A stretch of 64,000 bases of DNA from Methanobacteriota archaeon (GTDB lineage Archaea; Thermoplasmatota; Thermoplasmata; UBA10834). A program made the position numbers and the translations under genes. Below the pieces are notes generated by a model that was not told the origin of the DNA, did not search any database, and saw only the letters and a program-made list of their open reading frames with translations. The stretch is from assembly GCA_020725925.1 (NCBI GenBank), contig DYTN01000002.1, positions 44,621 through 108,620 on the forward strand, in the 5' to 3' direction. Below, one piece after another: positions 4,681 to 48,246 of the stretch. Positions within the stretch are counted from its first letter, which is position 1; the number at the start of each line of letters is the position of its first letter.

Positions 4681-4691
4681 GGAGGAAGACG

Positions 4692-8406: not shown

Positions 8407-8410
8407 CAGG

Positions 8411-10126: not shown

Positions 10127-10236
10127 GCCTGCCGAACGCGGTTGAGCATAGTTTCCCGATAGCGTGAGCTCTCAGAACATTGGGAAATGAAAGACCGGAA
10201 AGGTGTTTCGTAGGGTTTGCCGATGCCCAGGAGCGC

Positions 10237-13200
10237 CTACTGGTTCTCCTCGTCGCCGCCTTCCTCGCCCTCTTTCTTCTCCTCGGCGCCCAACGGCGTC
10301 TTTATGATCTTCTTGGGCACGACCTTGCGGTCGATCGGTCTCCTGATGACCATCCTCGGAGCGGCTGCCGGGGGCACTGCCGGTGGCGCACCAGCCTCCC
10401 TCTCCGCTGGAGCTGCTGGCTCCACTGCAGCCGGTGCCGTGGGCGGTGGGCCCCTGCGCACAGGCGGTGGGGCGGCTCTCTCGGCGCCGAACACGGTGCC
10501 GCACTTGTGGCACACGGTGGCCTCCTTCGGGTTTAGCGTTCCGCAGACCGGGCACGGGATCGGCCCCTCCTTCTTCTTCTCCTCTTCCTTGGCGAGCCAG
10601 TCCTCGAAGCTGATGTACGCCGGCTGTCTCCTCCACCACTCCTCGAAGGCCCTGTCGGTGAACTTCTTGCCCAGCTCCGGCTTGGCGAGCTCACGGTACT
10701 TGGAGACCATGTCGTCGTACTGCTTCCTCATGCGCTCCAAGTAGTCCGCCTCCTCCTCGACCTCGCCGATGAACTTCACGCCACAGTTCGGGCACTCAGC
10801 GGACTCGGCGGGTATCCATGCGCCGCACTCGGAGCACTTCATCGTACCAGCTTCGAACTCCACGCCACACTTCGGGCACCTCTTGCTCGCAGCGGGTATG
10901 AACGCGCCGCACTCGCCGCACTCGACGAGCTTGCCGAGGCCATACACGTACGTGTATATGGTGAAGCCCGCGACGACGCCGACCACCGCCACTATGATCA
11001 CGATCCAGACCCACCACGGGAACAGGCCGCCCTCGACGGCCGCGCTGATGGTGACCGTCGTGGTGGCATCGTAGTTCTGGCCCAGCACGACCGTCCTCAC
11101 GGCATACGAGCCCGAGTCCAGCTCAGCGGGTATCCTCAGGAAGACTATGATGCTCCCGTCGGCGTCGGTCGTCTCGACCGTGCTGTTGGAGTAGGGCACG
11201 ACCAGCGGGTTGTCGGGGTCGCTCGGATCGATCAGCCAGAAGACCACTCCCGGCAGGCCCACCACGCCTTGGGACGTCCCCTGGTAAGTTATCGTGGCCG
11301 TGATGATCATGATGTCGCCGGCGTCGTACTCGTTCGCGTCGGTGGTCACGGTGACCGAGACCTGCAGCTGCTGTATCGTGAAGGTGTGGTTGGCGAAGTT
11401 GTTGGTCTCGTATGGCTCCGACACGGAGTAGGCCGGATCGAGCCAGACCCACAGCTCGTATTCTCCTGGCGTTGTGAGGTTGATCAGCCAGCTCACGGAG
11501 ATCAGAAGCACGTTGTCAGTCGCGTTGGCGGAGATGTTGTACTCCAGGCCGGTGTGTATCGTGTGGTTGTAGCCCGCAGCGTTCCTCACGCCGATCCGCA
11601 CCTCAAAGACGCTGACGACGCTGCCGCCCAGGTTGCGCACCCTGGCATTGACGGTCACGTTCCTCCCGAAGGTCTCGCCCGTGGTGTTGCTCCCGCCGCG
11701 CTGGACGAATATCTCGTCACCGTCGATCGACAGGTCCGCCCTGATGTCCAGCACGGTGATCGACCCTGTGAGGATGTTGTCCGCATAGGACTCCTCGATG
11801 CGGGACTGCTCGGGGTTGACTATCACGACGATGCTGGCAACGACACTCTGGGTGAGCACTGGGGCAGGGAACTCTATCTTGACCGGCCACTTCCCACTCT
11901 CAGATGTCAGGCTCACGATGACGGTCGTTGTCTTGAGCTCCGAGATGCCCGAGTAGTTGAAGTACACCCAGACCTCCGGGTTGGAGAACGGCATTGGGTT
12001 GGAGTTGCTGAGGTTCACTTCGACTGTGATTGTCTGGCCGCCAGCGACCGAGCCGGCAGGGGATATCTTGAGGTCCGTCAGCTTCAGGTCCGGATGCTCG
12101 TACACGTCGATGTAGACGTAGTCCCAGTTGTTCGTGGTGTACAGCTCCTCGACCCCGTCGGGCAGGCTGGCCACTACTGTGATCCAATGCAGCTCGGGCG
12201 TGGAAGGTGTCCACGGCATTGAGACGAACGTATAGGAGCCAGGAGCGATGCTCGGGATCGTCGTCGTCCCGACCAAGTCCCCTCCGTCGAAGATGTCCAC
12301 AGTCACATCGTAGCTGGTGTTGCTGCCGATGTTGCTTATCTTCGCGACCAGGGTCGTGGGAACATCGACTTCGACGTAGGTATCAGTCGCATAGATCCAT
12401 GGGTCCCACGGGTAGCCATCAGACACGTAGACGTCCGGGAGGCTCTTGACAGTGACGAACCCAGACCCAGTAGCTGGTGCTGTGTTGTTGAGCTCAGGGA
12501 TCGTGTCCAGCGGGTCGACGACAACGATGATTCTGTGCGCATTTGGGTCCAACGGGCTGTCAGCAGTCCAATACCACACAGCGGTGGCATTCGAGCCCGG
12601 CTCGATGACGGGTATCACCGTGGATCCGAAAAGCTCGTCCGACTCAGGGATTCCGTTGTCCCAAGCGTCGTCGTAGAAGTCCACCCTGACATCATATGCC
12701 CTCGCGATACCGTCATTGTGAATGTTGGCGTACACGGTGACGTTCTGCCCAATCCTGGGGTACACAGGGTCAGTCCAAACAGGCACCGGAGGATCATGCA
12801 CTGCCAAGTCCGGCAACGCATCCTCGATGGTCACTGTCAGGTAGGTCACGTTTCTCCCGAGGGGAGTCGTGTAGGGCAGGACGCTCGTCGAAACCTCGCC
12901 GTCGGGGTAGTAGTTCTGCGAGTTGAACGTGTAGGTCACGTTCACCCAGTAGTTGCCCACGTAGCCTTCTGTCGGTCCTGCGCTCGTCAATCTCTGCGCG
13001 AGCGCGTTCACCTTGGCGACACCAAGCGCATCAGGTGCGGAGCTGCTCACAGCAGAGCTTGCGTTTATGCCACTGATGTAGTACCTCGCGGTCACCAAGG
13101 CGCCTGGCAAAGGCTTGCCGACACCGTCCAGGACGGTGACATGTATCCATCTGTATATCAGAGCCGCTGCGTCGCGCTCGACTGTTATGGAGGGAGCGCT

Positions 13201-15408
13201 TGTGTTCGTGAACTCGCCGACTGTGGTTCCAGACAGGATGGGAGCGGCCTGAAGGTCAGAGTCCTTGACGATGATGCTTGCATTGGAGTCCCATTCGGAA
13301 GTGATGACCTTGTCAATCGCCGAGTTCACGATCAGGACTTGAGCGTTCTCGCGGGCCACGATGCTCACACCGACCAGCGATGAATTCAGCACCTGGAGCC
13401 TGCCCTCACCCTGGACGATTATGTCGATCGGCAACGCACTAGACATCGTGGATCCTTCGAACACGAGGAGTGCGGGGTTCGACAGAGTCCCGTCGACGTA
13501 GACCGTCCTCTGGTTCGCGGAGGTCTGCACTATCTGGAAGACCGCGTTCGTGAACCTGAGCGTGCCACCTGCGGCGACGATCGTGTCGCCAGCGTGGTAG
13601 TACGTCATATCGTATATGTGCAAGGAGGGCGGGACAACCAGCCACCTGGCTGGGTCAGGGCTCTCAGCGGATGCCCCCAGCAATGACACGGTTACATCAT
13701 CGCTCTGATCCGAAGCTGTCATAGCTGGATAAGCGTCAAGAGAGAAGGTTTCTGTCGACGAGTAGTTGATAACGCCAATCATTGCACTTCCCGTGATAGC
13801 ATAGGAGCCGACGTAGAGCGATTCGGGGATACCGGCATTCGTGATTATGTCAGAGAGATACGGTATCGCGGCTCTACCATCTGACTTTGTGACGTTGAAT
13901 GTTAGGGCAGTCTCTCCCATATAGCCAAGGACCTCAGGAGGCGGGCTCATGGACAGCCCCGTCGGAGTATAATAGAAGGCTTGCTCGCCCTGGAGCTCGG
14001 TGATTCCCGTGAAATGAGCAACAACGGAGGCACCTTCAATTGGAACGCCATACTCATCTCCCACGGTGACATTCAACCATCTGTAGATGAAGGCATCAGC
14101 ACCGACGGTGAACTCGACTCCGATCCAGTCAAACTCCACGAAACCAGTGCCGACACCGCCGTTGTTCTCGAACCGCACATTGAGTTCCATTATGTCTGCG
14201 ACAGTTGGCACAGCTCCCAACGGTAGGTCAAAGGACATCAGAGTCCCAGGTGGGTCAGTCACACGCGGGATAACGCTAGAATCAGAGTAGACCCCTGACT
14301 CCGGACTCCACTGAATGGCAGCAGTCCCAGCATATGTAGGGGCGACAGAGTACTCCCCAATGACGGAGGCGGAACTCACTGAAAGCGCCGGAGCTAGAGT
14401 GCCGATATCCCATGTGTCAACCTCAAGTATCATTGTCGGCTGCACTTGGATTGTAGAACCGTCGTCGAGCCTGATATTTCCGATTGGCTGACCGGTGTTG
14501 TCATCTCCTCCTTGAGCAAGAGGAACTGCCGTTTGTAGACTACCACCAAGAGAAACCACTGCTGGCGCCCGGTCCGCAAGAGCGCCTGCATACGTCTCGA
14601 AAGATGTGCCATACAAATACGCGTGAGACAGATCATCCAACGCGAGGGTGTTGTGCACATACCAGTGCCCAAGCGTTATCGCAGGTCCGAAGTCCACAGC
14701 GAGGAAACTGTTGACTGCCAACAGGGTCGAGTCCCCGTTCAGCGTGATGTTCTTGGCGAACTGGGCATTCGTCGGATACTCGGGAAGGTCCAATATGCTC
14801 GAGTCGTACAGCTCCAACGTCGAGTCCGTGAGCGTTATCGCCGGCCCGTCATCCGCCGAATCGTAGGTTATGGCACCGCTCGACCCGACGACATACTGGG
14901 AGACGAGCTCTCCCGGCAACGCATGAATCGTGCACTCGTCCAGGGACATCGTGCCGCCGTTCACCAGGGTGATGTTCCCGGGGAACATGAACTCCGATAG
15001 GGCAGAAGCCTCTACCACACCGCCGTCCACAGTGAGCTCGAGGAACGGCCACGGGTTGATCTGGTCCAAGTAAGTGGTTATGACGCCGTGGTCCAGAGTG
15101 AGCGTCCCACCTGCGAACACGGTGATGGAGTGCTTCAATGTCGGGTCGTTGTTGCTGATGACGCTCAGGGTGGCGTCCCTGACTATCAGCGTACCCCCGC
15201 TCCTGACCTCCACGTCGCCGTCGATGGGCTGTTCGATGTTCTCGATGACGTAGGTCTCGTTCTCGACGATCAGGTCGCCCTCGGCGGCTTCCGTTGTCGG
15301 GGCGCCCGAGAGGAACAACAGCCCCGCGAACGCAGAGAACACAAGACTCACGACAACCAAAGCACTCAGAGTTCTATTGGCAAGGAGCATGTCAGCTTTG
15401 CCCTTCAT
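10237..15408 (-). CDS. Giant cell-surface protein (~1720 aa): signal peptide, right-handed beta-helix-like region, several CARDB-like Ig-fold domains, C-terminal TM helix, and a cytoplasmic tail carrying three zinc-ribbon motifs, a Pro/Ala-rich stretch and an acidic tail.
   Basis: - ORF 10237..15480; likely start ATG 15408 (MKGKADMLLANRTLSALVVVSLVFSAFAGLLFL).
- Repeated NxT sequons and beta-strand-rich repeats.
- CARDB-like blocks (PDLAVHDPPVP..VTVYANIHNDG..; PDVYVSDGYPW..; ADLSIDGDEIFVQRGG..).
- C-terminal TM helix WWVWIVIIVAVVGVVAGFTIYTYV.
- Cytoplasmic tail: CGECGAFIPAASKRCPKCG, CSECGAWIPAESAECPNCG, CPVCGTLNPKEATVCHKCG. Confidence 0.8.
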   Translation of the reverse strand: MKGKADMLLANRTLSALVVVSLVFSAFAGLLFLSGAPTTEAAEGDLIVENETYVIENIEQPIDGDVEVRSGGTLIVRDATLSVISNNDPTLKHSITVFAGGTLTLDHGVITTYLDQINPWPFLELTVDGGVVEASALSEFMFPGNITLVNGGTMSLDECTIHALPGELVSQYVVGSSGAITYDSADDGPAITLTDSTLELYDSSILDLPEYPTNAQFAKNITLNGDSTLLAVNSFLAVDFGPAITLGHWYVHNTLALDDLSHAYLYGTSFETYAGALADRAPAVVSLGGSLQTAVPLAQGGDDNTGQPIGNIRLDDGSTIQVQPTMILEVDTWDIGTLAPALSVSSASVIGEYSVAPTYAGTAAIQWSPESGVYSDSSVIPRVTDPPGTLMSFDLPLGAVPTVADIMELNVRFENNGGVGTGFVEFDWIGVEFTVGADAFIYRWLNVTVGDEYGVPIEGASVVAHFTGITELQGEQAFYYTPTGLSMSPPPEVLGYMGETALTFNVTKSDGRAAIPYLSDIITNAGIPESLYVGSYAITGSAMIGVINYSSTETFSLDAYPAMTASDQSDDVTVSLLGASAESPDPARWLVVPPSLHIYDMTYYHAGDTIVAAGGTLRFTNAVFQIVQTSANQRTVYVDGTLSNPALLVFEGSTMSSALPIDIIVQGEGRLQVLNSSLVGVSIVARENAQVLIVNSAIDKVITSEWDSNASIIVKDSDLQAAPILSGTTVGEFTNTSAPSITVERDAAALIYRWIHVTVLDGVGKPLPGALVTARYYISGINASSAVSSSAPDALGVAKVNALAQRLTSAGPTEGYVGNYWVNVTYTFNSQNYYPDGEVSTSVLPYTTPLGRNVTYLTVTIEDALPDLAVHDPPVPVWTDPVYPRIGQNVTVYANIHNDGIARAYDVRVDFYDDAWDNGIPESDELFGSTVIPVIEPGSNATAVWYWTADSPLDPNAHRIIVVVDPLDTIPELNNTAPATGSGFVTVKSLPDVYVSDGYPWDPWIYATDTYVEVDVPTTLVAKISNIGSNTSYDVTVDIFDGGDLVGTTTIPSIAPGSYTFVSMPWTPSTPELHWITVVASLPDGVEELYTTNNWDYVYIDVYEHPDLKLTDLKISPAGSVAGGQTITVEVNLSNSNPMPFSNPEVWVYFNYSGISELKTTTVIVSLTSESGKWPVKIEFPAPVLTQSVVASIVVIVNPEQSRIEESYADNILTGSITVLDIRADLSIDGDEIFVQRGGSNTTGETFGRNVTVNARVRNLGGSVVSVFEVRIGVRNAAGYNHTIHTGLEYNISANATDNVLLISVSWLINLTTPGEYELWVWLDPAYSVSEPYETNNFANHTFTIQQLQVSVTVTTDANEYDAGDIMIITATITYQGTSQGVVGLPGVVFWLIDPSDPDNPLVVPYSNSTVETTDADGSIIVFLRIPAELDSGSYAVRTVVLGQNYDATTTVTISAAVEGGLFPWWVWIVIIVAVVGVVAGFTIYTYVYGLGKLVECGECGAFIPAASKRCPKCGVEFEAGTMKCSECGAWIPAESAECPNCGVKFIGEVEEEADYLERMRKQYDDMVSKYRELAKPELGKKFTDRAFEEWWRRQPAYISFEDWLAKEEEKKKEGPIPCPVCGTLNPKEATVCHKCGTVFGAERAAPPPVRRGPPPTAPAAVEPAAPAEREAGAPPAVPPAAAPRMVIRRPIDRKVVPKKIIKTPLGAEEKKEGEEGGDEENQ

Positions 15409-15521
15409 AAGTTCACCAACCCAGAGATGCTGGGTACTGCGGGAGAAGTAAGCAGTTCGGCCATATAAAAAGGTATTCACCAGGTTTTCATGTCGGAGCA
15501 GACTGTTTTTCGGCAGTCTGG

Positions 15522-16517
15522 CTAACCGCTTTTTCGCTTCACTATTTTCTTGACAAATATCTGCGGTTTCCTCGTCTCCGAGGGCTTGTCAGAGACATCT
15601 TCCGAGCCGACCTTCACCTCGAGCTTCGTCAGCGATTCCTTGATGTTCACGCCGCAGGCGTAGCACATCAGGGCGTCCCGGCTGACCATCGTCTTGCAGT
15701 TGAGGCAGGGGATCTCTTCATCCTCGGACCCCTCCTCTGCCTTCACGGGCTCGCCGAACTCCTCCTCGCGTATCTTCTGCCCGCAGGCGTAGCACATGAT
15801 CGCGTCCTTGCTGATCACGGTCCTGCAGCCGGGGCAGAGCATCTCGTCCTCGCTCAGCGTGGCTGCGAGCGCGGGCTCGGGCTCAATCCTGACCGGCGCG
15901 GCTGCCACCTTGGTCAGCATGTCCTTCTGGCGGTCCAGGAGCTTCCTCGCGTCCTCCGAGAGCTTCTCCCTGTCGCGCCTGAGGGACTCCTCCTCCTCCG
16001 CGAGCGCGCGCTCCCTCGCGACGAGCGTGTCCCTCCGGGCAGTGATCTGCTCGAGCACCCGCTGGATCTCCTCCTCGGACTTCTTCAGCAGGTCCTCCCT
16101 GCTCAGGAGCCTCTTCCGCCTTTCGGTCACATCCGCCTGGAGGGTGTTGATCTCCGCAAGCCTGTCCGAGGCGTCCTTCTCCCTCGCCTCCGCAGACGTG
16201 ACCGCCGCCTTCGATACCGCCTCGAGCTTGGCTAGCTCGGCGGCCCTCGAATCAAGCTGGCCCGCCCTCTCCTTAAGGGATGACTCCTGTCTCTTGAGTT
16301 CCTCAACGCGCGCCTCGACCGAGGATTCCTTCTGCCTGATCGAATCCTCCTTCTCCCTGAGGCGCTGCTCGAGCGCCTCGACCTCGGACTTCTGCTTCAG
16401 GACGTCCTCGCGCTCCGCCTTGAGCTCGAGGTCCTTCTTCCTGACCTCGGCCTCCTGGGTCTTGAGGCGCTTGACCGCGTCCTCGATTATCTGGGAGATC
16501 GTCTGGTCTTCTGCCAT
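15522..16517 (-). CDS. Coiled-coil protein with two C-terminal zinc ribbons (DZR-type).
   Basis: - ~230 aa of Glu/Lys/Arg/Leu-rich heptads.
- Then CPGCRTVISKDAIMCYACG and CLNCKTMVSRDALMCYACG.
- Followed 80 nt later, on the same strand, by a KaiC-like gene. Confidence 0.7.
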   Translation of the reverse strand: MAEDQTISQIIEDAVKRLKTQEAEVRKKDLELKAEREDVLKQKSEVEALEQRLREKEDSIRQKESSVEARVEELKRQESSLKERAGQLDSRAAELAKLEAVSKAAVTSAEAREKDASDRLAEINTLQADVTERRKRLLSREDLLKKSEEEIQRVLEQITARRDTLVARERALAEEEESLRRDREKLSEDARKLLDRQKDMLTKVAAAPVRIEPEPALAATLSEDEMLCPGCRTVISKDAIMCYACGQKIREEEFGEPVKAEEGSEDEEIPCLNCKTMVSRDALMCYACGVNIKESLTKLEVKVGSEDVSDKPSETRKPQIFVKKIVKRKSG

Positions 16518-16596
16518 CGCTCACCACTTGGGATGGTTCGGGCGAACGCTTCCTCACGCATATACGTTGTGGACTACTACAAAGTTTTGCCGCGCG

Positions 16597-17313
16597 CTAC
16601 GGCGCGCTCATGAGCGGGCCGAGCACCTGGATGCCGTTCCTCCCGACCTCGATCGCGTGCCTTTCCATCGAGTGCTCCGAAGCCCTCATCTTCTCCACCT
16701 GCAGGAACCTCACGAGCTTCCCACGCTGCCTGTCCAGGCCGAGCATCAGTATGCCGTCCGCGAGGAAGCCCTCGTTGCCCAGGAGCTGGCTCTCGCCCGA
16801 GAGCGAGCGCTCCATTATGATGAAGCATGTCAGGTTGTTGTCCCTGATCATCTTGAAGAAATAGAACATCTTCTTGCGCATGTCGCTCACGTTCTCCATG
16901 AGCGAGTAGAGCGCGCCGAGCGAGTCGAGGACGAATATCGAGAACTTGTCCCCGTGGGTCTTCTTGAAGCGCTGGATCATCTTCTCGATGAAGAGGACGT
17001 AGTCGGTCTGCGCCTCCTGGCCTATGACCTCGTCTATCTGGTCGACCTCCCTGAGGTCGGTCAGGTCCGAGATCTGCATCTTCATCGAGAGCTTCGCGCC
17101 TACGCTGTCCATGTTCTTCAGGTGGCTGTCGACCGTCTCCTCCAGGGTGGTGTACAGCCCGAACTCGTTCTTGTCTTTGAGGTAGCTGCTCATGAGAGAA
17201 TAGCAGAATGTGGTCTTCATCGAGCCCGGGGGTCCAGTGACCAAGACGACCTTCGGCCGGTCGATGTCGTTCTTGAAGACCTTCTCCAAGCCCGGAACAG
17301 AATCCTTGAACAA
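16597..17313 (-). CDS. KaiC/RecA-superfamily single-domain (pseudo)ATPase (COG0467-like).
   Basis: - TTG start 7 nt after AGGAGG.
- VVLVTGPPGSMKTTFCYSL..FVLDSLGALY..CFIIMER matches the KaiC-like fold.
- P-loop has Met in place of the second Gly. Confidence 0.75.
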   Translation of the reverse strand: MFKDSVPGLEKVFKNDIDRPKVVLVTGPPGSMKTTFCYSLMSSYLKDKNEFGLYTTLEETVDSHLKNMDSVGAKLSMKMQISDLTDLREVDQIDEVIGQEAQTDYVLFIEKMIQRFKKTHGDKFSIFVLDSLGALYSLMENVSDMRKKMFYFFKMIRDNNLTCFIIMERSLSGESQLLGNEGFLADGILMLGLDRQRGKLVRFLQVEKMRASEHSMERHAIEVGRNGIQVLGPLMSAP

Positions 17314-17437: not shown

Positions 17438-20036
17438 TCACTCAGCGTCGTCCTCGGAGCCCTCATCCCCGTCGTCTGACCCCTTCTCTCCGGGCTCGTC
17501 CTCGTCAACCATGTCGCCGTTCGGCGCAGGGCAGCTGGTCAGCGTGCGCCCCGACTCTATCGTCCGCTCCTCCTCGGATGCGCCGACGAGGCGGGCGACG
17601 GCACTGATGGTGTCCCCCTCCTTGAGCTTCATCAGGCGCACGCCCATGGTGTTCCTGCCGAGGACGCTGATTCCCGAGACAGGCATGCGGATGACCATCC
17701 CGTAGACGCTCGTGACGATGAGCTCGTTCTCGTCCTTCACGGCCTTGACGGTGACGACGTCCCCGTTCCTGCCGCCCGTCTTGATCGTGATGACGCCCTT
17801 GCCGCCCCTGCGTATCTTCCTGTACTCCTCCACTGTGGAGCGCTTCCCGTAGCCGTTCTCAGTCACCGTCAGGAGCTGGTCCTTCGAGTCGACCACGGCC
17901 ATGCTGACGACCTCGTCGCCCTTCTGGAGCCTGACGCCCCTGACGCCGTACGTGGCCCGCCCGGTCGGCCGGACATCGCTCTCCATGAACCGCGCGGCGA
18001 GGCCCTTCTTGGTGGCCAGTATGATCTCCTTCGACCCGTCCGTGATGGACGTGTCGACGACCGAGTCGCCCTCGTCCAGCTTGATGGCGATTATGCCGCT
18101 CTGCCGGACGTGCGAGTACGCCGAGAGCCTCGTCTTCTTGATGGTCCCGTTGGCCGTGGCGAACACGAGGTAGCTGTCGTCCGTGAAGAGCTTCACGGGT
18201 ATCGTGTTCACGACCTTCTCGCCGTCCTCTAGGTGCTCGAGCAGGTTCACGACGGGCTTGCCCTTGGCGTGCCTGCCGGCCGCGGGGATCTTGTACGCCT
18301 TGAGCCAGTAGACCCTGCCCTTGTTGGTTATGTACATCACGTAGTCGTGAGAGCATGTGATGAACAGGTCGACGACGTAGTCCTCTTCCTTGGTCTCCAT
18401 ACCCATGAGCCCCACGCCGCCCCTGTGCTGGCGCTCGTATGTGTCGAGCGGTAGGCGCTTGATGTAGCCTGTGTTGCTGATCATCACGACCACGTCCTCG
18501 ACCGGTATGAGGTCCTCGATGTCCATGTCGATCGCGTTGGCCTCGATGGTCGTGCGCCTGGCGTCCCCGAACTGCTTCTTGACAGCCAGCACCTCGTCCT
18601 TGATGACGCCCAGGATCTTCTTCTCGTCCTTGAGTATCGATTTGAGCTCGTCTATCAGCTTCTTCGTGGCGTCGGCCTCGTCCCTGACTGCCTGCATCTC
18701 CATCCCCGTCAGCCGCTGCAGCTGCATCTCGAGGATTGCCTTGGTCTGCTCCTCCGACAGGAGGTACTTGGCCATCAGGGAGTTCCTGGCCTCGTCCCGA
18801 GTCTTGGCCTTCCTGATGATCCTGATGACATCGTCCAGGTGGTCGAGCGCGGTCATGAGGCCCGCGAGGATGTGCGCGCGCTTCTCCGCCTCCCTGAGCC
18901 TGTGCTCCGTCCTCCGCTTGACGACATCGAACCTGTGCTCGACGTAGTACTCGAGCATCTCCTTGAGCGAGAGCACCCTGGGCTGGTTGTTCACGAGCGC
19001 GAGGTTGAATTATGCCGAAGGTCGTCTGGAGCTGCGAGTGCGCGAACAGCTGGTTCAGCACGACCTCCTCGATCGCGTCCTTCTTCAGCTCGATGACTAT
19101 CCGCATGCCCTCCTTGTCGGACTCGTCCCTGAGGTCGGAGATGCCTTCGATGCGCTTCGACTTCACCAGCTCGGCGATCTCCTCGAGCAGGGTGGACTTG
19201 TTGACCATGTAAGGTATCTCCGTGACCACCAGTTGCGCCTTGCCGGAGTCCTCGTCCCTCTCGATGGAGTACCTGGCGCGGATGCGCATCCTGCCCTTGC
19301 CGGTGGCGTACGCCTCCGCAATCCCCTGGGCACCGTAGATGACGCCCCCAGTGGGGAAGTCCGGGCCCTTCACGATCTCCATGAGGTCCCTGAGCTCCGG
19401 GTCCTTGCCCTGGATCTGCATGTCGACCATGAGCGCGACCGCGTCCACGACCTCGCCGAGGTTGTGCGGCGGGATGTTCGTGGCCATCCCGACGGCGATG
19501 CCCTGGGAGCCGTTCACGAGCAGGTTGGGGAGCTTCGCAGGCAGCACGAGCGGTTCCTTGAGGGTGCCGTCGAAGTTGTCTGTGAAGTCGACCGTCTCCT
19601 CGTCGACGTCCTTGAGCATCTCCGCGGCGATGGCCGAGAGCCTGCACTCGGTGTACCTCATCGCGGCGGCGGAGTCGCCGTCCACGCTCCCGAAGTTCCC
19701 TTGGCCGTCAATGAGCGGGTAGCGCATGGAGAACTCCTGGGCCATGCGGACGAGGGTGTCGTAGATGGCCATGTCGCCGTGCGGGTGGAACTTGCCCAGC
19801 ACCTCACCGACGACCCGCGCGGACTTCTTGTGGGCCTTGTTGTGGCCCAGGCCCATCTCGTTCATCGCGAACAGGATGCGCCTGTGGACCGGCTTGAGCC
19901 CGTCGCTGACATCGGGGAGCGCGCGACCGACTATGACGCTCATGGCATAGTCGATGTACGACTTCTTCATCTCGATCTCGATGGGCCTCTGGACAAGCCT
20001 GGTCGCGATGTGTGGCTCCTCGGTTGCGTCGACCAT
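17438..20036 (-). CDS. gyrA: DNA gyrase subunit A, interrupted by a single-nucleotide frameshift near 19005-19012.
   Basis: - N-terminal part (from 20036) carries the GyrA catalytic region: AAMRYTE, GNFGS, PHGD.
- This frame ends at ..TTFGII.
- The remainder ([20 protein letters not shown].. through the six-bladed beta-pinwheel C-terminal domain) is in another frame, ORF 17438..18994. Confidence 0.9.
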
Positions 20037-20046
20037 CCGATATCAC

Positions 20047-22191
<2,145 letters not shown>

Positions 22192-22332
22192 TCAGCCCAC
22201 CCTTGACAGGAATTGACATGATGCCTCTAGCGCGCACGGGGCCCCGGAACGCATCCTGCTGGCCAAGGGCATCTCCATCGCCCTCAATCAAAGGCTTTAT
22301 ACCGACGAGGCAATTAGTGGCCCAGGACACTG

Positions 22333-23598
22333 ATGAGAGGCGCCAAGGGCAGTTCTTTTCCACAGGAAATGAAGGGGATTTCGAAAGACGAGGGGGTTGA
22401 GCCAGACAAGCTAGCCCGACTACTAAAGGCCGGGAGGGCCGTAGTTCCTTCGAACCCGAGGCACAGGGGCCTCAGACCCTGCGCGATAGGCGAGGGGCTC
22501 AGGGTGAAGGTCAACGCGAACATAGGCACCTCGCGGGACTACATCGACCTGAAGGAGGAGCTGGAGAAGCTCAGGGTGGCCGTGAGGTATGGCGCTGACG
22601 CGGTCATGGACCTCAGCACGGGCGGTGACATCCGGGAGATCCGACGGAACATCGTCAAGAACAGCAGGGTGCCTGTCGGGACAGTGCCCATCTACGAGGC
22701 TGTGTGCAAGAGCTCCTCGAAGGGCGGGGCGATGAACATGACGGGGGACGACCTGTTCTCGGCCATTGAGCGACACGCGAAGGACGGTGTCGACTTCATG
22801 ACCGTCCACTGCGGGGTCACGAAACGGACCGCTGGCTCGTTGAAGAAGCACAAGAGGGTCACGGGCGTGGTCTCGAGGGGCGGGGCGATGCTCATCGCTT
22901 GGATGCGGGAGAACGGCAAGGAGAATCCCCTGTTCGAGGACTACGGCTACCTGCTCGAGCTGGCGAAAGAGCACGAGTTCGCCCTGAGCCTGGGCGACGG
23001 GCTCAGGCCGGGCAGTGTCCACGATGCCACCGACGTTCCCCAGCTGCACGAGCTGCTCGTCTTGGGGAAGCTGGTCGAGAGGGCCAGGAAGGCTGGGGTC
23101 CAGGTGATGGTCGAGGGGCCAGGGCACGTGCCGTTGAACCAGATCGAGGCCAACGTCCGGGTGGAGAAGGTGCTGTGCAAGGGTGCGCCGTTCTACGTCC
23201 TCGGGCCGCTGGTGTGCGATGTTGGCGCGGGCTACGACCACATCACCGGTGCGATAGGAGGGGCCCTTGCGGCGTACTTCGGGGCCGATTTCCTGTGCTA
23301 CGTGACGCCCTCGGAGCACCTCTCGCTTCCCACGGTAGAGGACGTGCGCCAGGGGGTCGTGGCGAGCAAGATCGCCGCCCACGCGGCCGACCTTGCGAGG
23401 GGCAGGGAGATGGCCTGGGACCTCGAGATGTCGAAGGCGAGGAAGGCCTTCGACTGGCAGAAAATGTACAGGCTATCGGTCGACCCGGAGAGGGCAAAAG
23501 AGGTCCGGACCAGACGAGGTTCGAAGAGCCCTCAGGTCTGCTCGATGTGCGGCGACCTCTGCGCGATGAAGATCGTGGACGACATGCTCGGACAATGA
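22333..23598 (+). CDS. thiC: Phosphomethylpyrimidine synthase ThiC (short archaeal form).
   Basis: Full-length match to ThiC signatures: GTVPIYEA, HCGVT, EGPGHVPLNQI, DVGAGYDHITGAIGGA, CSMCGDLCAMK. Confidence 0.9.
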   Translation: MRGAKGSSFPQEMKGISKDEGVEPDKLARLLKAGRAVVPSNPRHRGLRPCAIGEGLRVKVNANIGTSRDYIDLKEELEKLRVAVRYGADAVMDLSTGGDIREIRRNIVKNSRVPVGTVPIYEAVCKSSSKGGAMNMTGDDLFSAIERHAKDGVDFMTVHCGVTKRTAGSLKKHKRVTGVVSRGGAMLIAWMRENGKENPLFEDYGYLLELAKEHEFALSLGDGLRPGSVHDATDVPQLHELLVLGKLVERARKAGVQVMVEGPGHVPLNQIEANVRVEKVLCKGAPFYVLGPLVCDVGAGYDHITGAIGGALAAYFGADFLCYVTPSEHLSLPTVEDVRQGVVASKIAAHAADLARGREMAWDLEMSKARKAFDWQKMYRLSVDPERAKEVRTRRGSKSPQVCSMCGDLCAMKIVDDMLGQ

Positions 23599-23603
23599 GC
23601 CGT

Positions 23604-24554
23604 TCAGAGCGACAGGCCCATCGGGAGGCGCATGACGGCTCCGACCAGGAGGTACACGATCCCGGCCGCGATGACGGCCAGGATCTCTGAAAGCACGGCC
23701 TCCCCCGTGGAGATGTCGTTCGCAACGCTGATGGCTCTGCTTGCGATTGTGACGAGCCACACCAGGCCGACCAGGGCGATGAGCAACAGGACGCCGCCCG
23801 CGGCGATTGCCTGGTCGAGCTCATCAGGGGTCCAATCCTGGACATCTGTCATGTCGAGGCCCTGGAACCCCACGGTGAACAGCACCAAGAGCACGATCTC
23901 CAGGAACACGTATGCAGGGTAGACGTAGCCGAGGAGGGTGAGGGTGGCCGTACGCTCACCCCTCCCGCCGAAGATGTTCTTGGCGATTACCGCGGCAGCG
24001 ACGCCGAACAACAGGAAGGCGAGCAGCGAGATCACCCAGCTGACGAATCCCTGGAATGCAACCTCCAGCGCGTCGCCCGTGCTGTATCCCAGCACCTCGC
24101 CCATGTCGGCCGTCACGAGCGTGCTCACCACTGCGGACAGGATCGAGAACACGACGACGATGGCCAAAGCCCTCTGGAGGTTGGTGGACAGGTAGAGCGA
24201 CACGCAGGCCTTGGTGGGAGAGTACAGGATCCTGACGAGGTCCGCGAAGTCCGGCCTCGGCGCGTGCTTCGGCTGCATGTAGAGCCCGGGGTAGTGGCTG
24301 ATGTGGACGTGCGGATGCGCGGGCGAATGGAAATCCGAAGGCGGTATCTGTTCGACGAAGTGCGCGGGGAGCGCCTGCCTGATGGTGGTGCCGCACCTCG
24401 GGCAGTTCGTGACGCCGGTCCCATCCCCCAACGACTGGAGATAGCCAGACGCTCTGAACCCGCACGACGGACATGCGATGTCGTGCGCATACACGACGGA
24501 CTCTGGGATCATGCCTTGGGCCAATCGTGTCCAGAGGATATGATTGTTGCCCAC
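23604..24554 (-). CDS. Yip1-family multi-pass membrane protein with an N-terminal double zinc ribbon.
   Basis: - N-terminus CPSCGFRASG...CPRCGTTI.
- Then 5 TM helices with a Yip1-like pattern. Confidence 0.65.
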   Translation of the reverse strand: MGNNHILWTRLAQGMIPESVVYAHDIACPSCGFRASGYLQSLGDGTGVTNCPRCGTTIRQALPAHFVEQIPPSDFHSPAHPHVHISHYPGLYMQPKHAPRPDFADLVRILYSPTKACVSLYLSTNLQRALAIVVVFSILSAVVSTLVTADMGEVLGYSTGDALEVAFQGFVSWVISLLAFLLFGVAAAVIAKNIFGGRGERTATLTLLGYVYPAYVFLEIVLLVLFTVGFQGLDMTDVQDWTPDELDQAIAAGGVLLLIALVGLVWLVTIASRAISVANDISTGEAVLSEILAVIAAGIVYLLVGAVMRLPMGLSL

Positions 24555-24573
24555 GGCCGTCGGGGAAAATCAA

Positions 24574-24675
24574 TGGAGCCACTGGAGGGTATTGAACCCC
24601 CGGCCTGCGGTTTACGAAACCGCCGCTCTTTAGCGGCACGCGCGAGAGCGTGTGCAACCGCTGAGCTACAGTGGC
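24574..24675 (-). tRNA. tRNA-Thr (anticodon CGU) with encoded CCA and a ~29-nt insertion (putative intron) in the D-loop region.
   Basis: - Reverse complement: acceptor GCCACUG/CAGUGGC + U + CCA.
- Anticodon arm GCGGU-UUCGUAA-ACCGC.
- T-arm GGGGG-UUCAAUA-CCCUC.
- D-stem GCUC...GAGC is interrupted by a GC-rich hairpin (GCACACGC-UCUC-GCGCGUGC). Confidence 0.55.
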
Positions 24676-24814
24676 AGGCAGGTTGTTGTGAAGATTGTCT
24701 TGCTAGTTAAGGCTTTTGACATTTGACTTGTTCGATTGGGCGCATCCAGTCACGCCGCGGGAGAAACGAATGTCTTTTTATGAGTGGCACATTATCTACC
24801 ACGGGTCGCCCTGA

Positions 24815-26974
24815 ATGGTCACAGACCTCCGCATACCTGAGGGAATCGTCGTCCGGACCGCAAAAGGCGGTTCGGAGTCGCTCAAGACGATATTGGCAGA
24901 CCTCAAGCAATACAGCTTCACCGGCTACGTCAAGGTCACTCTGGAGAAGGAGATAATGAGCTCCATCGGATACCTTGTCGTGGAGCAAGGCGTCCCCGTG
25001 ATGGCCATATACGAGTTCGAGAAGTCGAAGCCGAGGGAGCTCAAGAGGATATACACTGGTGAGAAGTCGCTCAGGTTCATCCTGGAGGATTCCCAGGACA
25101 AGGCATCGAACATCGAGCTGCACAGCAGGGTCCCGAGCGAGGAATTCGAGAGGCGGTTCCCAGACTCCCGCCTTGCCGAGGCCCCAGTGGCCGCAAGGCC
25201 CTCTAGGGCCGAGACCGAGCGCGTCATCGAGGAGGCCGTGGAGGAGCCGGAGCAGGTGGACGCGCAGCGCGAGATCATCGAGCTCTGGCGCAGGAAGGGC
25301 TTCAAGGTCGACACTCTGGAGGAGGCGCTTGAGGAGGGGCCGCAGGCGCTGACGACGGAGCTATCAGCGTTCGAGCAGGACGCCCAGAGGCTGAAGCAGT
25401 TCGAGGTCGTGCTCAACAACTTCCCCGTGCTCGGGCACGAGGAGGAGATCCAGGAGATCAGGACGAAGCTCGACGACCGCACGAGGATAGCGGAGATCGA
25501 ATCGGACGTCGAATTCCTCCAGGAGAAGATCCGCCGGAAGATCCAGAAGCGCAAGGCCGATGAGGAGTCCATCCGGCAGGAGATGGAGAAGAAGAGGCAG
25601 GAGGAGAAAGCTGCCGATGTCTACGACCTGATCCTGCGCTACCAGACGCAGCCCGAGGAACAGGTCGAGAAGAGGTGCCCGAGGTGCGGGGGGCCCGTGG
25701 GCCCGGACGGCAAGTGCCCGAAGTGCAGCGTGGCAGAGGAGGCGCCCGCGCCCAGCTTCGTGAAGCCCTTGCCGGAGGGCATGAGGTTCGACAACTTCGT
25801 CGTCGGCCCGGGCACCAAGTTCCCCGTGGCCGCAGCCGTCGCCGTCGCCGAAGCTCCCAGCAAGACCTACAACCCGCTGCTGCTGTTCGGAGGCTCGGGC
25901 CTGGGGAAGACCCACCTCATCACCGCGATCGGCATCCAGGTGAAGCAGAGGTCTCGGAACGCCAAGGTGAACTACGTGCCCGCGGACAGGTTCGTCGAGG
26001 CGATCGGGCAGGCCCAGGACGACGCCCTGAGGAAGAGGATCCGGGAGGACCTGAAGCGCTCGGACCTCCTGCTGGTCGACGACATGCAGTTCCTCGCGGC
26101 CAACGAAAACGCCCAGCTGGAGATGGCGCAGGTCATCGAATACCTGATAGATGCAAAGAGGCAGGTCGTGTTCGCGAGTGACAGGCTCCCGGCGCAGCTG
26201 CCTGGCTTCAGCGACAGGCTCAACTCCCGCATAATGCTCGGGCTAACAACGGACCTCCCACCGCCCGACATGGACACGAGGGTGAAGATACTGAGGATGA
26301 AGGCCCAGGAGAAGGGCCTGAAGCTCAGCGACGAGATCATCGGCTACATCGCCGAGAGGGTCACGACGAACGTCAGGGAGCTGGAGAGCACGCTCACCAA
26401 GATTGTCGCCTTCTCATCGATAATGAAGCTCGACGTGGACCTGAACCTCGTCTCCGACATACTGAAGCCCTTGGCCCCCGTCCAGGAGACGAGGAAGGAG
26501 ATCATGAAGGAGGTCAAGGCGTCGCCAGGGCACTGCTACATGATAGAGGAGGAGAGGCCGCTGTACAGCAACGTCCTCCTCGGCAGGAAGATGGACGAGG
26601 GCTGTGCCGGCCTGGTCATCACCCGCCTCAACCCCAAGCGCCTGAGGGACGAGTTCAAGGTCGCCCCCGAGATACTCTGGCTCACGGACAAGGAGAGCTC
26701 CCAGGAGAAGACCGTCCCACCGTCGCTCGAGATGCTCATCCACACGATCCAGGAGTTCATGGAGACCGAGGAGAAGGGCATGATCGTCCTGGACGGCCTC
26801 CAGTACCTCGTCAGCAGCACCAACTTCGAGGCCGTGCTCAGGTTCCTCAGGAGCCTGATTGACGAGATCTCGGAGTCGAACTGCATACTCGCGCTGTCGA
26901 TCAGCCCCGAGACCCTGAAGCCGCAGGAGGTCTCCATCCTCGAGCGGGAGATGGAGGTCCTCAACCTCACTTGA
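24815..26974 (+). CDS. DnaA-family AAA+ ATPase (domain III/IIIb complete; no DnaA domain IV) embedded in a novel archaeal architecture: DUF4388-like N-terminal domain, acidic linker, internal zinc ribbon, DnaA-like AAA+, C-terminal DUF835/KaiC-like P-loop-less domain.
   Basis: - Walker A NPLLLFGGSGLGKTHLITAIG.
- Walker B LLLVDDMQFL.
- SDRLP..FSDRLNSRIMLGL, with the arginine-finger Arg retained.
- Box VIII/sensor II TTNVRELESTL.
- Collinear with E. coli DnaA residues ~130-370 at roughly 35-40% identity.
- Zinc ribbon RCPRCGGPVGPDGKCPKCS lies just N-terminal of the AAA+ core.
- C-terminal 170 aa (HCYMIEEERP..GLVITRLNP..IVLDGLQYLV..) resembles the DUF835-like gene at 46785..47381. Confidence 0.8.
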   Translation: MVTDLRIPEGIVVRTAKGGSESLKTILADLKQYSFTGYVKVTLEKEIMSSIGYLVVEQGVPVMAIYEFEKSKPRELKRIYTGEKSLRFILEDSQDKASNIELHSRVPSEEFERRFPDSRLAEAPVAARPSRAETERVIEEAVEEPEQVDAQREIIELWRRKGFKVDTLEEALEEGPQALTTELSAFEQDAQRLKQFEVVLNNFPVLGHEEEIQEIRTKLDDRTRIAEIESDVEFLQEKIRRKIQKRKADEESIRQEMEKKRQEEKAADVYDLILRYQTQPEEQVEKRCPRCGGPVGPDGKCPKCSVAEEAPAPSFVKPLPEGMRFDNFVVGPGTKFPVAAAVAVAEAPSKTYNPLLLFGGSGLGKTHLITAIGIQVKQRSRNAKVNYVPADRFVEAIGQAQDDALRKRIREDLKRSDLLLVDDMQFLAANENAQLEMAQVIEYLIDAKRQVVFASDRLPAQLPGFSDRLNSRIMLGLTTDLPPPDMDTRVKILRMKAQEKGLKLSDEIIGYIAERVTTNVRELESTLTKIVAFSSIMKLDVDLNLVSDILKPLAPVQETRKEIMKEVKASPGHCYMIEEERPLYSNVLLGRKMDEGCAGLVITRLNPKRLRDEFKVAPEILWLTDKESSQEKTVPPSLEMLIHTIQEFMETEEKGMIVLDGLQYLVSSTNFEAVLRFLRSLIDEISESNCILALSISPETLKPQEVSILEREMEVLNLT

Positions 26975-26998
26975 CCGGCAAAGAACACAGCTGAGGGT

Positions 26999-28630
26999 TC
27001 ACGCGGCCTTCTTCATCATCTCTTTGAACTCGCGCATCTCCCTGACGGCCTGGGCGTAGTCCCCTGACTTCATGAGGTTCGTGGCGGACTTGAGGACGGT
27101 GAGCATCGGGGTGATGTTCACGTTCCTGACCTTGGCCTCGAGGAGGTCGTCCCTTGCCTTCTTCATCTCCTCGTTCATGCGCGAGGGGATGGCCTTGCCC
27201 AGGCTCTCGTTGGCCGCCCTGACCGTGTTGTCCATCTTGTCAAAGTCCTTCTGGTCGAGGGCCTTCTGGGCGTCCAGGAGCAACCGCCTGGCCTCCTTCG
27301 TGTCGACGATGAACAGCTCGCAGTCCGAGACGAACTGCCTCAGGCCGGTGATCTTCTTCTTCGATTCGTTGTACCTGCCCGTGATCGGCAACAGCTCCTT
27401 CGAGACCTTGTCGGCGTAGACGAACGCGGCCTCGATGTCCCCCGAGGAGCGGGCCCTCGCGACCTCTTGGATGTATGTGGTCGCCCTGGAGATGTCCCCT
27501 CCGAAATCACGGGCTATCTTGATCTCCTCGTTCAGTTGGATTATGCTCTGCGCGAGATGCGCATCGATCCTCCCCATGAGGACCGTCTTGGATTTCTGAA
27601 CGAGCTCGATGGCCTTGTCTATCTGCCTGTCCCTTCCCGCCTCGGCCGCCTCGTCAATGAGCTGCTTGCTCTCCCCGATCTCGACCTCCTTCTCCCTGGC
27701 GACGGCGAGAAGCGGTTTCATCTCTGCGACCATCCTCGCGAGGTCCCTGCCCTTATCCCTGACAGGGGGCGCGGCTGGGACGGCAGGGGCGGGCGCCGGC
27801 GTCGGAGCCTCCTTGACAACTCTCACGGCAGGCGCAGGTGGTGCTGGTGCAAGTGCCGGAGCGGGCTTCTCCTTCACGACGGGCTTCTCTGGCTTCGCAG
27901 GCGCAGGCTTCGGTGCCGGCTCTGGCTCCTTCTTGCCCAGCTTCCACCGGCCGAACAGTCCCTTCTTCTCCTCGGCCTTGGGCTCCGGGGGAGCGGCTTT
28001 CTCCACCCTCTTCGGCGGCGCCTTCACCTCTTCGACGGGCGCCTCGATCTCCATCTTCGGAGTGGGTGCGGCAGGCGCGGCCTCCTCGGGCTCGACAAAC
28101 ACCGCCCCGCAGCCAGGACATGACTCCGCATCCATGCTGACGAGCGTGTTGCACGCGGGGCACTGGAACATGTCGGCCCCCTCCTCCGCGAAGAGCACTC
28201 CGCACTTGGGGCACGCGGTCGCCGTGGTCTCGACGGTAGCGCCACACTGCGGGCACTCGAAATACTCGACCGCAGCCGGCTCCTCGACGGGCTTCTCCTC
28301 GGCCACGGGTGCGACCTGCACGACCGGAGCAGGCTTCGGGGGCTCGGCTCTCACGAGCTCCGGCGGCTTGGGCGGGGGCTGTGCGACAGGAGGCGGTGCC
28401 GGCGCCTCTCGTTGAGGTGGTGGCCTCGAGAGTATCTCGTCCACCCTAGCCTCGACCGACAACTTCGGCGGGGGCGCAGGCGCGGGCGCGGGCTCAGGGG
28501 CCTTCTTAGGTGGCTCTAGGTCTATCTCAAATATGGACAGGTCGGTCCCGCAGAACCCGCATTTCTTCGATCCGGGCTGAAGCGGAGAGTCGCAGATCGG
28601 ACAGAGCCTATCTCCGCTGGATTCTGGCAA
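26999..28630 (-). CDS. Multi-zinc-ribbon protein with Pro/Ala-rich linkers and a C-terminal alpha-helical repeat domain.
   Basis: - TTG start 9 nt after AGGAGG.
- N-terminus CPICDSPLQPGSKKCGFCG, CPQCGATVETTATACPKCG, CPACNTLVSMDAESCPGCG.
- (PAPA)n low-complexity stretches.
- C-terminal ~270 aa of helical repeats. Confidence 0.65.
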   Translation of the reverse strand: MPESSGDRLCPICDSPLQPGSKKCGFCGTDLSIFEIDLEPPKKAPEPAPAPAPPPKLSVEARVDEILSRPPPQREAPAPPPVAQPPPKPPELVRAEPPKPAPVVQVAPVAEEKPVEEPAAVEYFECPQCGATVETTATACPKCGVLFAEEGADMFQCPACNTLVSMDAESCPGCGAVFVEPEEAAPAAPTPKMEIEAPVEEVKAPPKRVEKAAPPEPKAEEKKGLFGRWKLGKKEPEPAPKPAPAKPEKPVVKEKPAPALAPAPPAPAVRVVKEAPTPAPAPAVPAAPPVRDKGRDLARMVAEMKPLLAVAREKEVEIGESKQLIDEAAEAGRDRQIDKAIELVQKSKTVLMGRIDAHLAQSIIQLNEEIKIARDFGGDISRATTYIQEVARARSSGDIEAAFVYADKVSKELLPITGRYNESKKKITGLRQFVSDCELFIVDTKEARRLLLDAQKALDQKDFDKMDNTVRAANESLGKAIPSRMNEEMKKARDDLLEAKVRNVNITPMLTVLKSATNLMKSGDYAQAVREMREFKEMMKKAA

Positions 28631-46783: not shown

Positions 46784-46784
46784 G

Positions 46785-48208: not shown

Positions 48209-48246
48209 TCGTTCGACATGTTTTTAGCCGAGGAAGGAGGTCTTCG

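Follow-up and report, generated by a model that had tools for sequence, protein, structure and literature searches.

Why does an archaeon carry a gene for a DnaA-type ATPase close to its gyrase genes? The question is raised by a 64-kb stretch of DNA from a member of the Thermoplasmata (~62% GC), referred to here as the window, in which a DnaA-like fusion gene, termed DnaAfus (24815-26974, plus strand, 719 aa), starts 2.9 kb from the start of gyrB. Archaea are textbook non-users of DnaA. A first-pass annotation of the window had explained the arrangement by the co-transfer of a bacterial origin-proximal block and the subsequent domestication of the AAA+ domain of DnaA. The genes on which this explanation was built (gyrA-gyrB, thiC, a membrane protein gene, a tRNA gene, and the DnaA-like gene) were all recovered at the positions it had named by Pfam, NCBIfam, and Rfam searches. 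The interpretation favored here, with moderate confidence, is that DnaAfus is a Thermoplasmata multidomain ATPase with its own set of partners, and that the proximity of gyrase is a secondary, clade-level rearrangement and not the relic of a bacterial dnaA-gyrB pair.

Domain architecture of DnaAfus

DnaAfus is built from an N-terminal domain (N-domain, residues 1-125, nt 24815-25189), a coiled coil (residues 126-285), a Zn-ribbon with the motif CPRC..CPKC (residues 288-304, nt 25676-25726), an AAA+ domain plus lid that corresponds to domain III of DnaA (residues 316-560, nt 25760-26494), and a C-terminal DUF835 or inactivated KaiC domain (residues 575-719, nt 26537-26971), all encoded on the plus strand. 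The AAA+ domain is recognized by Pfam and NCBIfam profiles and by alignment. In Pfam, Bac_DnaA matches residues 323-480 (2.7e-48), an Hda lid follows at residues 488-530, and DUF835 matches residues 591-713 (1e-29). Against residues 115-369 of Bacillus subtilis DnaA, 255 residues align without a gap (210 bits, ~45% identity). The Walker A (GLGKTHL), Walker B (LVDDMQF), box VII (RLNSR), and sensor II (NVRELE) motifs are present and largely kept family-wide, and the protein harbors a single P-loop (residues 359-366). The domestication of a DnaA AAA+ domain is borne out by the Pfam match and the gapless alignment, as a bona fide bacterial-type domain III, including the initiator-type insertion and the lid found in bacterial DnaA (TIGR00362; B. 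subtilis, PDB 8btg), sits inside an archaeal protein.

The likeness to bacterial DnaA is restricted to this domain. The DnaA equivalog profile TIGR00362 scores 273 bits, below its cutoff of 343.9, and is covered from position 74 to 351 of 437. No match was obtained in DnaAfus to DnaA domain I (PF11638, DnaA_N), the N terminus taking on a different fold, or to domain IV (PF08299, the Bac_DnaA_C helix-turn-helix), the C terminus being DUF835. In bacterial DnaA, domain I contacts the helicase and also interacts with itself, and domain IV reads the DnaA boxes. As both are missing, DnaAfus cannot serve as an origin recognizer of the DnaA type. Its domain III is instead flanked by the archaeal N-domain, coiled coil, Zn-ribbon, and DUF835, and its host is an archaeon with an MCM helicase and the primase small subunit PriS, with no enrichment of DnaA boxes nearby. 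Judged by its predicted domains, DnaAfus is not a DnaA orthologue, but a mosaic that reuses the ATPase engine of the initiator.

With Hda and other AAA+-only proteins, DnaAfus shares a DnaA-type AAA+ domain in the absence of domain IV, and members of the family carry the NCBI label "DnaA/Hda family protein." DnaAfus differs from them in being much nearer to DnaA proper and in having four extra modules; at 719 aa it is not a short AAA+-only protein. The Hda profile TIGR03420 scores 104 bits against a cutoff of 194.8, and a PDB search gives 209 bits to DnaA and 38 bits to Hda. DnaAfus is also far nearer to DnaA than to DnaC/IstB.

The C-terminal domain belongs to the DUF835 class (PF05763, 103.6 bits against a gathering score of 33.1). 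No P-loop of the form GxxxxGK[ST] occurs in this part (residues 575-719). DUF835 has been classed as an inactivated KaiC, and archaeal response regulators that join a receiver domain to it (REC-DUF835) have been described (Galperin et al. 2018, PMC5847659). DnaAfus resembles such archaeal DUF835 signaling proteins in its C-terminal DUF835 without a P-loop and is encoded beside KaiC-like ATPases, but it pairs DUF835 with a DnaA AAA+ domain, not with a receiver or PAS domain.

The N-domain gives a very confident AlphaFold2 model (pLDDT 93.7), in which the secondary structure elements follow the order b-a-b-b-b-b-a-b-a. A Foldseek comparison of this domain with the PDB gave no significant match, and only a weak match to DUF2226 was seen. 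It is the most conserved part of DnaAfus in the close clade (~80-90% identity). DnaAfus is best filed as a Thermoplasmata DnaA(III)-iKaiC fusion (iKaiC, inactivated KaiC), an architectural variant of the DnaA-family AAA+ proteins that resides in a Zn-ribbon/KaiC-like/pilus-like neighborhood.

The DnaAfus family and the affinities of its AAA+ domain

More than 1,200 close homologues of DnaAfus are present in a database of 90% identity clusters. An exhaustive search of 50% identity representatives, followed by alignment and domain mapping, recovered full-length relatives of the same architecture down to ~30% identity; when the 90% identity clusters were searched with a profile, mostly the clade of the query came back. 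Named members are assigned only to "Thermoplasmata archaeon," "Methanomassiliicoccales archaeon," "Candidatus Thermoplasmatota archaeon," and unclassified "Euryarchaeota" metagenome-assembled genomes (MAGs). The retention of DnaA domain III across a large and deeply diverged Thermoplasmata family means that the ATPase module of the bacterial initiator was captured and has been under selection for another job.

Automated annotation labels family members as "chromosomal replication initiator protein DnaA," a label that misleads metabolic and replication reconstructions from MAGs. No description of an archaeal DnaA-DUF835 architecture was found in the literature, and neither of the two main phylogenomic studies on gyrase and replication in archaea (PMC9348778, PMC3914693) mentions DnaA. 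The family is widespread and misannotated, and it seems to be undescribed.

Variants of the architecture are informative for its assembly. Four proteins (P0189, P0204, P0220, and P0258) comprise the complete N-domain, coiled coil, and DUF835 without an AAA+ domain. The existence of such AAA+-less scaffolds suggests, at the level of domain composition, that the DnaA module was inserted into an older archaeal scaffold of N-domain, coiled coil, and DUF835. Giant variants of 1,250-1,420 aa (P0148, P0161, P0164, and P0184) combine the N-domain with numerous coiled-coil segments and a single AAA+ domain of the DnaA type. Proteins of ~640-700 aa with two DnaA-type AAA+ domains in tandem (P0165, P0176, and P0377) are bacterial, the two named ones being from Gemmatimonadota MAGs.

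The similarities of the AAA+ domain single out no bacterial donor. Against ordinary bacterial DnaAs the window domain reaches 184-200 bits, and against distant members of its own family it reaches 105-206 bits. Deep bootstrap values are near 0 in a neighbor-joining (NJ) tree of 204 AAA+ domains. In cross-validated scoring with hidden Markov models (HMMs), the mean preference of the fusion-family AAA+ domains for their own profile is only 17 bits, and the bacterial profile is favored by 15 of 61. By this measure the domain is slowly evolving and DnaA-proper-like, being barely separable from bacterial DnaA by HMM scores. Among the bacteria sampled, Bacillota are nearest both for GyrB (up to 65% identity) and for the AAA+ domain, in a sample that was picked by similarity to DnaA and in which Bacillota also top the general bacterial profile. 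The distant member P0302 is most similar to the DnaAs of Patescibacteria, Chloroflexota, and Dormibacterota.

A recurrent set of partner genes

In the window, DnaAfus is followed by a convergent gene for a double-Zn-ribbon (DZR) protein of 543 aa (26999-28630, minus strand; Pfam DZR/Zn_ribbon_3), in which N-terminal Zn-ribbons are joined by a Pro-rich linker to a conserved helical domain at the C terminus. On the far side of the gyrase genes lie, in Pfam annotation, a KaiC-like ATPase of 238 aa with the Walker A variant GPPGSMKT (KaiC238, 16597-17313, minus strand; PF06745, 2e-33), a 331-aa coiled-coil protein with a C-terminal double Zn-ribbon (ZnCC, 15522-16517, minus strand), a giant CARDB-repeat protein of 1747 aa with Zn-ribbons near its C terminus (10237-15480, minus strand), and type-IV-pilus-like assembly genes encoding two PilB/T2SSE ATPases and two T2SSF membrane proteins (3849-10126, plus strand).

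These genes recur next to DnaAfus elsewhere in the family. Neighborhoods were mapped by tblastn for 11 DnaAfus lineages, which share less than 50% identity with each other. The DZR gene is the most conserved neighbor, lying convergent and directly downstream in seven loci (L001, L003, L083, L084, L086, L088, and L092) and separated from DnaAfus by one gene in L090. KaiC238 of the window is 65-69% identical to its counterparts in L086, L088, and L090, the DnaAfus proteins of which are only 32-36% identical to that of the window. ZnCC homologues adjoin the KaiC-like gene in L001, L003, L084, L086, and L090; the CARDB giant is present in the same five loci, and in L090 it is adjoined by a PilB homologue of 76% identity.

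Two loci contain the set in one piece. L090 (10001-21887; DnaAfus 36% identical over the C-terminal 400 aa) has the uninterrupted order DnaAfus-KaiC-DZR-KaiC238-ZnCC-CARDB-PilB, and L086 (10001-16624; 35%) has DnaAfus-DZR-KaiC238-ZnCC and the start of the CARDB gene, uninterrupted as far as the locus reaches; neither contains gyrase. In the window, the set is in two parts (3849-17313 and 24815-28630) that are split between KaiC238 and DnaAfus by the gyrA-gyrB-thiC-Yip1-tRNA block, and DnaAfus and the DZR gene, as a pair, have the opposite orientation to that in L086 and L090. Zn-ribbons recur in DnaAfus, the DZR protein, ZnCC, the CARDB giant, and the Yip1 protein, a sequence pattern that hints at a shared mode of interaction.

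Linkage of gyrase to DnaAfus across lineages

Genes for gyrase (gyrBA) lie within 10 kb of DnaAfus in three of the 11 lineages, always upstream and divergent. The window clade is one of them (L001 and L003, 75% and 74% identical in DnaAfus, both arranged as in the window), and the neighboring P0289 clade (L084, 39%), whose gyrB contains an intein, has the same gene order as the window. The third is the distant P0302 clade (L085, 32%), with gyrBA 7.3 kb upstream, six unrelated genes between, and no DZR or KaiC partner. No gyrase gene was found near DnaAfus in the seven lineages whose upstream flank extends over 6.4 kb or more. Besides L086 and L090, these comprise L083 (36%; a PolB gene directly upstream), L087 (37%; no partner genes), L089 (33%; PolD DP2 nearby and a KaiC-like gene divergent upstream), L091 (P0340, in the 90% cluster of P0174, ~35% over the C-terminal 430 aa; an 806-aa convergent gene), and L092 (37%). 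In L088 (34%), where the DZR and KaiC-like genes follow directly, the upstream flank of 1.8 kb is too short to judge. The linkage on which the first-pass annotation was based is thus kept in the closest clade, in the neighboring clade, and loosely in one distant clade, but it is not a family-wide feature. In an unrooted NJ tree of full-length proteins, the window clade is placed beside the P0289 clade with weak support and the P0302 clade elsewhere, deep nodes being poorly resolved.

As a bacterial baseline, 79 dnaA loci were collected by a scan of GTDB genomes keyed on the Walker A peptide, which yielded one archaeal locus besides. Of these 79, 56 have gyrB co-directional with dnaA and 2-9 kb downstream of it, in most cases with gyrA next. 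The window resembles the bacterial oriC cluster dnaA-dnaN-recF-gyrB-gyrA in having a DnaA-family gene and gyrB-gyrA within a few kb. It differs in that gyrBA is upstream and divergent and that thiC, the membrane protein gene, and the tRNA gene lie between; the co-directional bacterial order from dnaA through dnaN, recF, and gyrB to gyrA is not present. No dnaN, recF, or orc1/cdc6 was found by Pfam among the annotated open reading frames (ORFs) of the window.

The gyrB-thiC spacer

The divergent intergenic spacer between gyrB and thiC (21934-22332, 399 nt) had been described as AT-rich and as a possible origin. Its GC content is 54%, which falls within the range of the other intergenic regions of the window (47-63%), and AT-richness does not set it apart; its minimum over 60 nt is 30% GC, those of the other regions being 32-55%. 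The spacer was aligned over ten relatives, three of them taken from the fetched loci and the other seven (L093-L099) obtained by a pattern scan of metagenomes. The gyrB 5′ leader, a TATA box, the BRE/TATA (transcription factor B recognition element and TATA box) of thiC, and three elements resembling protein-binding sites are conserved. The gyrB TATA box TTTATATA (~22034-22045, minus strand) lies ~100 nt upstream of gyrB at a conserved distance, and the thiC BRE/TATA AAAGGCTTTATAC (~22293-22306) lies ~35 nt upstream of the thiC ATG.

The protein-binding-like elements resemble origin recognition boxes (ORBs). Element B, TTTCTCGCACCGGAAACGGAGGGGGGTTTCT (22079-22109, minus strand), has the consensus TGCAGTGGAAAC-N3-GGGG and is kept in nine of ten relatives. 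In L003 it reads TTCCAGTGGAAACGGAGGGGT and agrees at 19 of 22 positions with the sequence TCTCCACAGGAAACGGAGGGGT, which we take to be the Aeropyrum ORB4 duplex. This 22-mer is printed in PMC5376975. The L003 element also shares its first 12 bases with the Pyrococcus furiosus ORB core TTCCAGTGGAAA and has a G-string at the end (compare PMC1904270). Element C, AATTCCACGTGAAATGTCGGCA (22129-22150, plus strand), is a mini-ORB-like near-palindrome and the best-conserved noncoding block among the relatives; a second mini-ORB-like element, A, may also be present. Element D, TTTTCCACAGGAAATGAAGGGGAT (22355-22378, plus strand), is located within codons 8-15 of thiC, inverted relative to B, and is nearly invariant in the ten relatives, three synonymous sites included.

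The elements form a cluster (dyad TTCCA..GGAAA plus G-string) at 22022-22378, at 7240-7523 of L003, and in L093-L099, which is unique within the window. All five window matches to TTCC-N4-7-GAAA fall within 22022-22369. The motif GGAAA[CT]NNNGGGG, partly defined after the region had been viewed, occurs twice in the window, at 22086 (minus) and 22365 (plus) in inverted orientation, whereas shuffled sequences lead to an expectation of 0.39; 186 kb of other archaeal loci contain one match. No ORB-like elements were found near DnaAfus in the other lineages. In L085, the region immediately upstream of gyrB, at a long distance from DnaAfus, likewise contains TTCC..GAAA motifs and a TATA box with similar spacing. 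From B to D, the window sequence has ~58% GC, with the G-strings pointing outward, and no AT-rich unwinding element lies between the inverted elements. The only AT-rich patch (~22000-22060, 30% GC) is outside the B-D pair and contains the gyrB TATA box.

Other signals were considered and rejected. DnaA boxes occur at chance level in the window (five found, 4.8 expected), and the local GC skew tracks gene orientation at the 64-kb scale. A thiamine pyrophosphate riboswitch is not matched in the spacer by Rfam even at E-values up to 1, and a thiC promoter ~35 nt from the ATG leaves no space for one. A repeat finder returned nothing notable in the spacer, nor did a scan for sigma-70 promoters and terminators, which models no archaeal promoters.

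Origin of the gyrase linkage

The gyrase block splits the partner set only in the window clade and the neighboring P0289 clade, and the proximity is therefore best read as a secondary rearrangement. The simplest reading is that the block came to lie in the partner set in the common ancestor of these two clades. Several observations weigh against this account. Its direction, with the contiguous set as the ancestral state, depends on an unrooted and poorly resolved NJ tree. Gyrase genes are also within 10 kb in the distant clade of L085, with different genes between; as the chance of such proximity is ~1% per lineage (for a 20-kb neighborhood and a genome of ~2 Mb), an ancestral or functional tie to gyrase, or to a nearby chromosomal landmark, is still conceivable. 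DNA polymerase genes lie near DnaAfus in two lineages, PolB directly upstream in L083 (6005-8524) and PolD DP2 three genes upstream in L089 (2030-5344), which may be due to chance or may be a weak hint of a replication-related context. The ORB-like elements of the spacer also count against it. The biochemical role proposed below would rest on neighborhood association and motif conservation. Additionally, the basic motif with which DnaA binds single-stranded DNA is apparently lost in the window clade, where the alignment places AANENAQ in the position of a segment containing K/R; this position is presumably that of the motif, by comparison with E. coli DnaA, and its predicted loss argues only against a DnaA-like binding of single-stranded DNA.

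Under the co-transfer proposed by the first-pass annotation, a bacterial block with dnaA and gyrB-gyrA would have entered an ancestral archaeon once, dnaN and recF would have been lost, and dnaA would have been cut down to its AAA+ domain and fused with archaeal domains, leaving the adjacency as a remnant. Gyrase and the DnaA core are indeed both of bacterial type, the adjacency occurs in three lineages including a distant one, the scores of the window AAA+ domain are no lower with bacterial DnaA than with distant family members, and Bacillota are the nearest sampled bacteria for both proteins, albeit in a DnaA-selected sample with Bacillota at the top of the general profile. The gene order and orientation are nevertheless opposite to those of the bacterial block, no remnant of dnaN or recF is left, at least seven lineages have no gyrase nearby, and the gyrase block breaks a partner set of Zn-ribbon and KaiC-like genes that is otherwise contiguous. 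The scaffold exists without an AAA+ domain, which implies domain insertion rather than the decay of a whole dnaA, and P0302 is nearest to quite different bacteria. Published studies trace gyrase itself to a single ancient transfer into the ancestor of Euryarchaeal group II, comprising Thermoplasmatota and Halobacteriota (PMC9348778; PMC3914693), whereas the named DnaAfus members are confined to the Thermoplasmata. Given the opposite orientation, the missing dnaN and recF, and the Thermoplasmata-only members, co-transfer needs an inversion, the loss of dnaN and recF, a truncation of dnaA from both sides, a fusion, and a loss from all other gyrase-bearing archaea. We regard it as highly improbable. 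Pure coincidence, in which the DnaA-like gene and gyrBA share an arbitrary neighborhood without any historical or functional tie, is somewhat easier to accept but still improbable. It agrees with the absence of linkage from most lineages and with the functionally unrelated thiC, Yip1, and tRNA genes in between, but linkage in two or three separately sampled clades, one with different intervening genes, exceeds the ~1% expected per lineage. As the deep tree is poorly resolved, a single inherited event could lie behind the linkage.

The remaining alternative, also raised by the first-pass annotation, is that the region is a replication-related locus, with the spacer as an Orc1/Cdc6-type origin or binding region around which gyrase, DnaAfus, MCM, and PriS cluster. 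Replication genes cluster near oriC in other Euryarchaeota. The presence in the window of the MCM helicase (40853-42751, minus strand) and of PriS (56359-57588, plus strand) was confirmed by Pfam, and PolB and PolD adjoin DnaAfus in other lineages. The spacer resembles the archaeal Orc1/Cdc6 origins of Pyrococcus, Sulfolobus, and Aeropyrum in its conserved, inverted ORB-like elements with dyad core and G-string: all five dyad matches of the window are concentrated here, as are both of its copies of the inverted motif, and conserved element B, in its L003 form, shares the P. furiosus core and G-string. An ORB inside a gene, as element D would be, has a precedent in the ORB clusters of Pyrococcus dp1 (PMC1904270). 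In contrast to these origins, the spacer has no adjacent orc1/cdc6, none being present within 22 kb upstream or 42 kb downstream, and no extended AT-rich unwinding element, its composition being typical of intergenic DNA and its G-strings facing outward around a 58% GC segment. Its two or three elements overlap the gyrB and thiC promoters and sit where promoter or operator sites of gyrB are expected, as do the motifs upstream of gyrB in L085. Element D falls in conserved ThiC codons, the motif is partly post hoc, the GC skew simply mirrors gene strand, and other lineages lack ORB-like elements near DnaAfus. The elements are more economically read as a regulatory region of gyrB, and a replication-related locus is considered unlikely. 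Less probable by far is the stronger version in which the spacer is a functional Orc1/Cdc6-type origin and DnaAfus, 2.5 kb away, acts there or on nascent chromosomes as an accessory initiator, a remodeler, or an origin-tethering factor with the KaiC-like ATPases. If it were true, an archaeal lineage would have taken over the ATPase engine of the bacterial initiator to control its own replication or segregation. The elements beside gyrB in any case provide a concrete candidate for an Orc1-binding or gyrB-regulatory region.

Proposed mechanism of DnaAfus

For DnaAfus as a multidomain ATPase with its own partners, the following mechanism may be proposed. The protein would self-assemble in an ATP-dependent manner through its DnaA-type AAA+ interface, for which Walker A and B, sensor II, and mostly the box VII arginine are retained. 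The coiled coil and the Zn-ribbon would drive oligomerization or the binding of partners. The P-loop-less DUF835 domain may dock onto the neighboring KaiC-like ATPase, and the whole would act as a regulatory or assembly switch for the adjacent surface-structure locus. In place of the co-transfer story, this offers testable partners, namely the KaiC-like ATPase and the DZR protein.

Gyrase genes

The gyrB gene (20047-21933, minus strand, 628 aa) scores 976 bits against the NCBIfam gyrB equivalog (cutoff 882). Its true start is MEDSAYD, and the longer ORF that reaches 22179 is an upstream extension. The frame of gyrA (17438-20036, minus strand; Pfam and NCBIfam) is broken by a 1-nt insertion, an extra T at ~19008, into two overlapping ORFs (17859-20036 and 17438-18994). 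On the minus strand, positions 19000-19012 read ATAATTCAACC in the window and ATAATCAACC in the relatives, and an alignment shows an intact gyrA of 866 aa in L001 and L003. Against TIGR01063 the two halves reach 581 and 545 bits, and jointly they span the whole model. Both subunits are thus identified as DNA gyrase at equivalog level, with the gyrA frame broken by a single base. The frameshift is probably an assembly error, because gyrase has been argued to be essential in the archaea that carry it (PMC3914693). In L084, from a related Methanomassiliicoccales-like cluster, gyrB (4883-7021) combines Intein_splicing and Toprim matches in one ORF. The contig of L084 contains many fragmented genes, suggesting an error-prone assembly.

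Additional features of the window

Between the spacer and DnaAfus lie thiC (22333-23598, plus strand; Pfam 2e-188), which encodes the radical-SAM thiamine pyrimidine synthase, the gene for the Yip1-domain membrane protein with its N-terminal Zn-ribbon (23604-24554, minus strand; Pfam), and an intron-containing tRNA gene (24577-24675, minus strand). The tRNA is missed by ARAGORN in its default setting and caught by Rfam (RF00005, 56.6 bits). With the intron option, ARAGORN predicts a tRNA-Arg(CCT) that has an odd extra arm and whose intron, of 8 nt, is unusually placed, and both the identity and the intron geometry are uncertain.

A segment of 2.4 kb (45858-48246) downstream of a pair of archaeal type IV pilin genes (44554-45857) contains no gene recognizable by Pfam. 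It includes an ORF of 350 aa (46644-47696) with no matches and an atypical codon-position GC pattern. At the other end of the window, an 827-aa protein (272-2755) combines helix-hairpin-helix DNA-binding motifs (residues 79-131) with a C-terminal KaiC-like/DUF7504 ATPase domain, and its gene opens the pilus-like locus.

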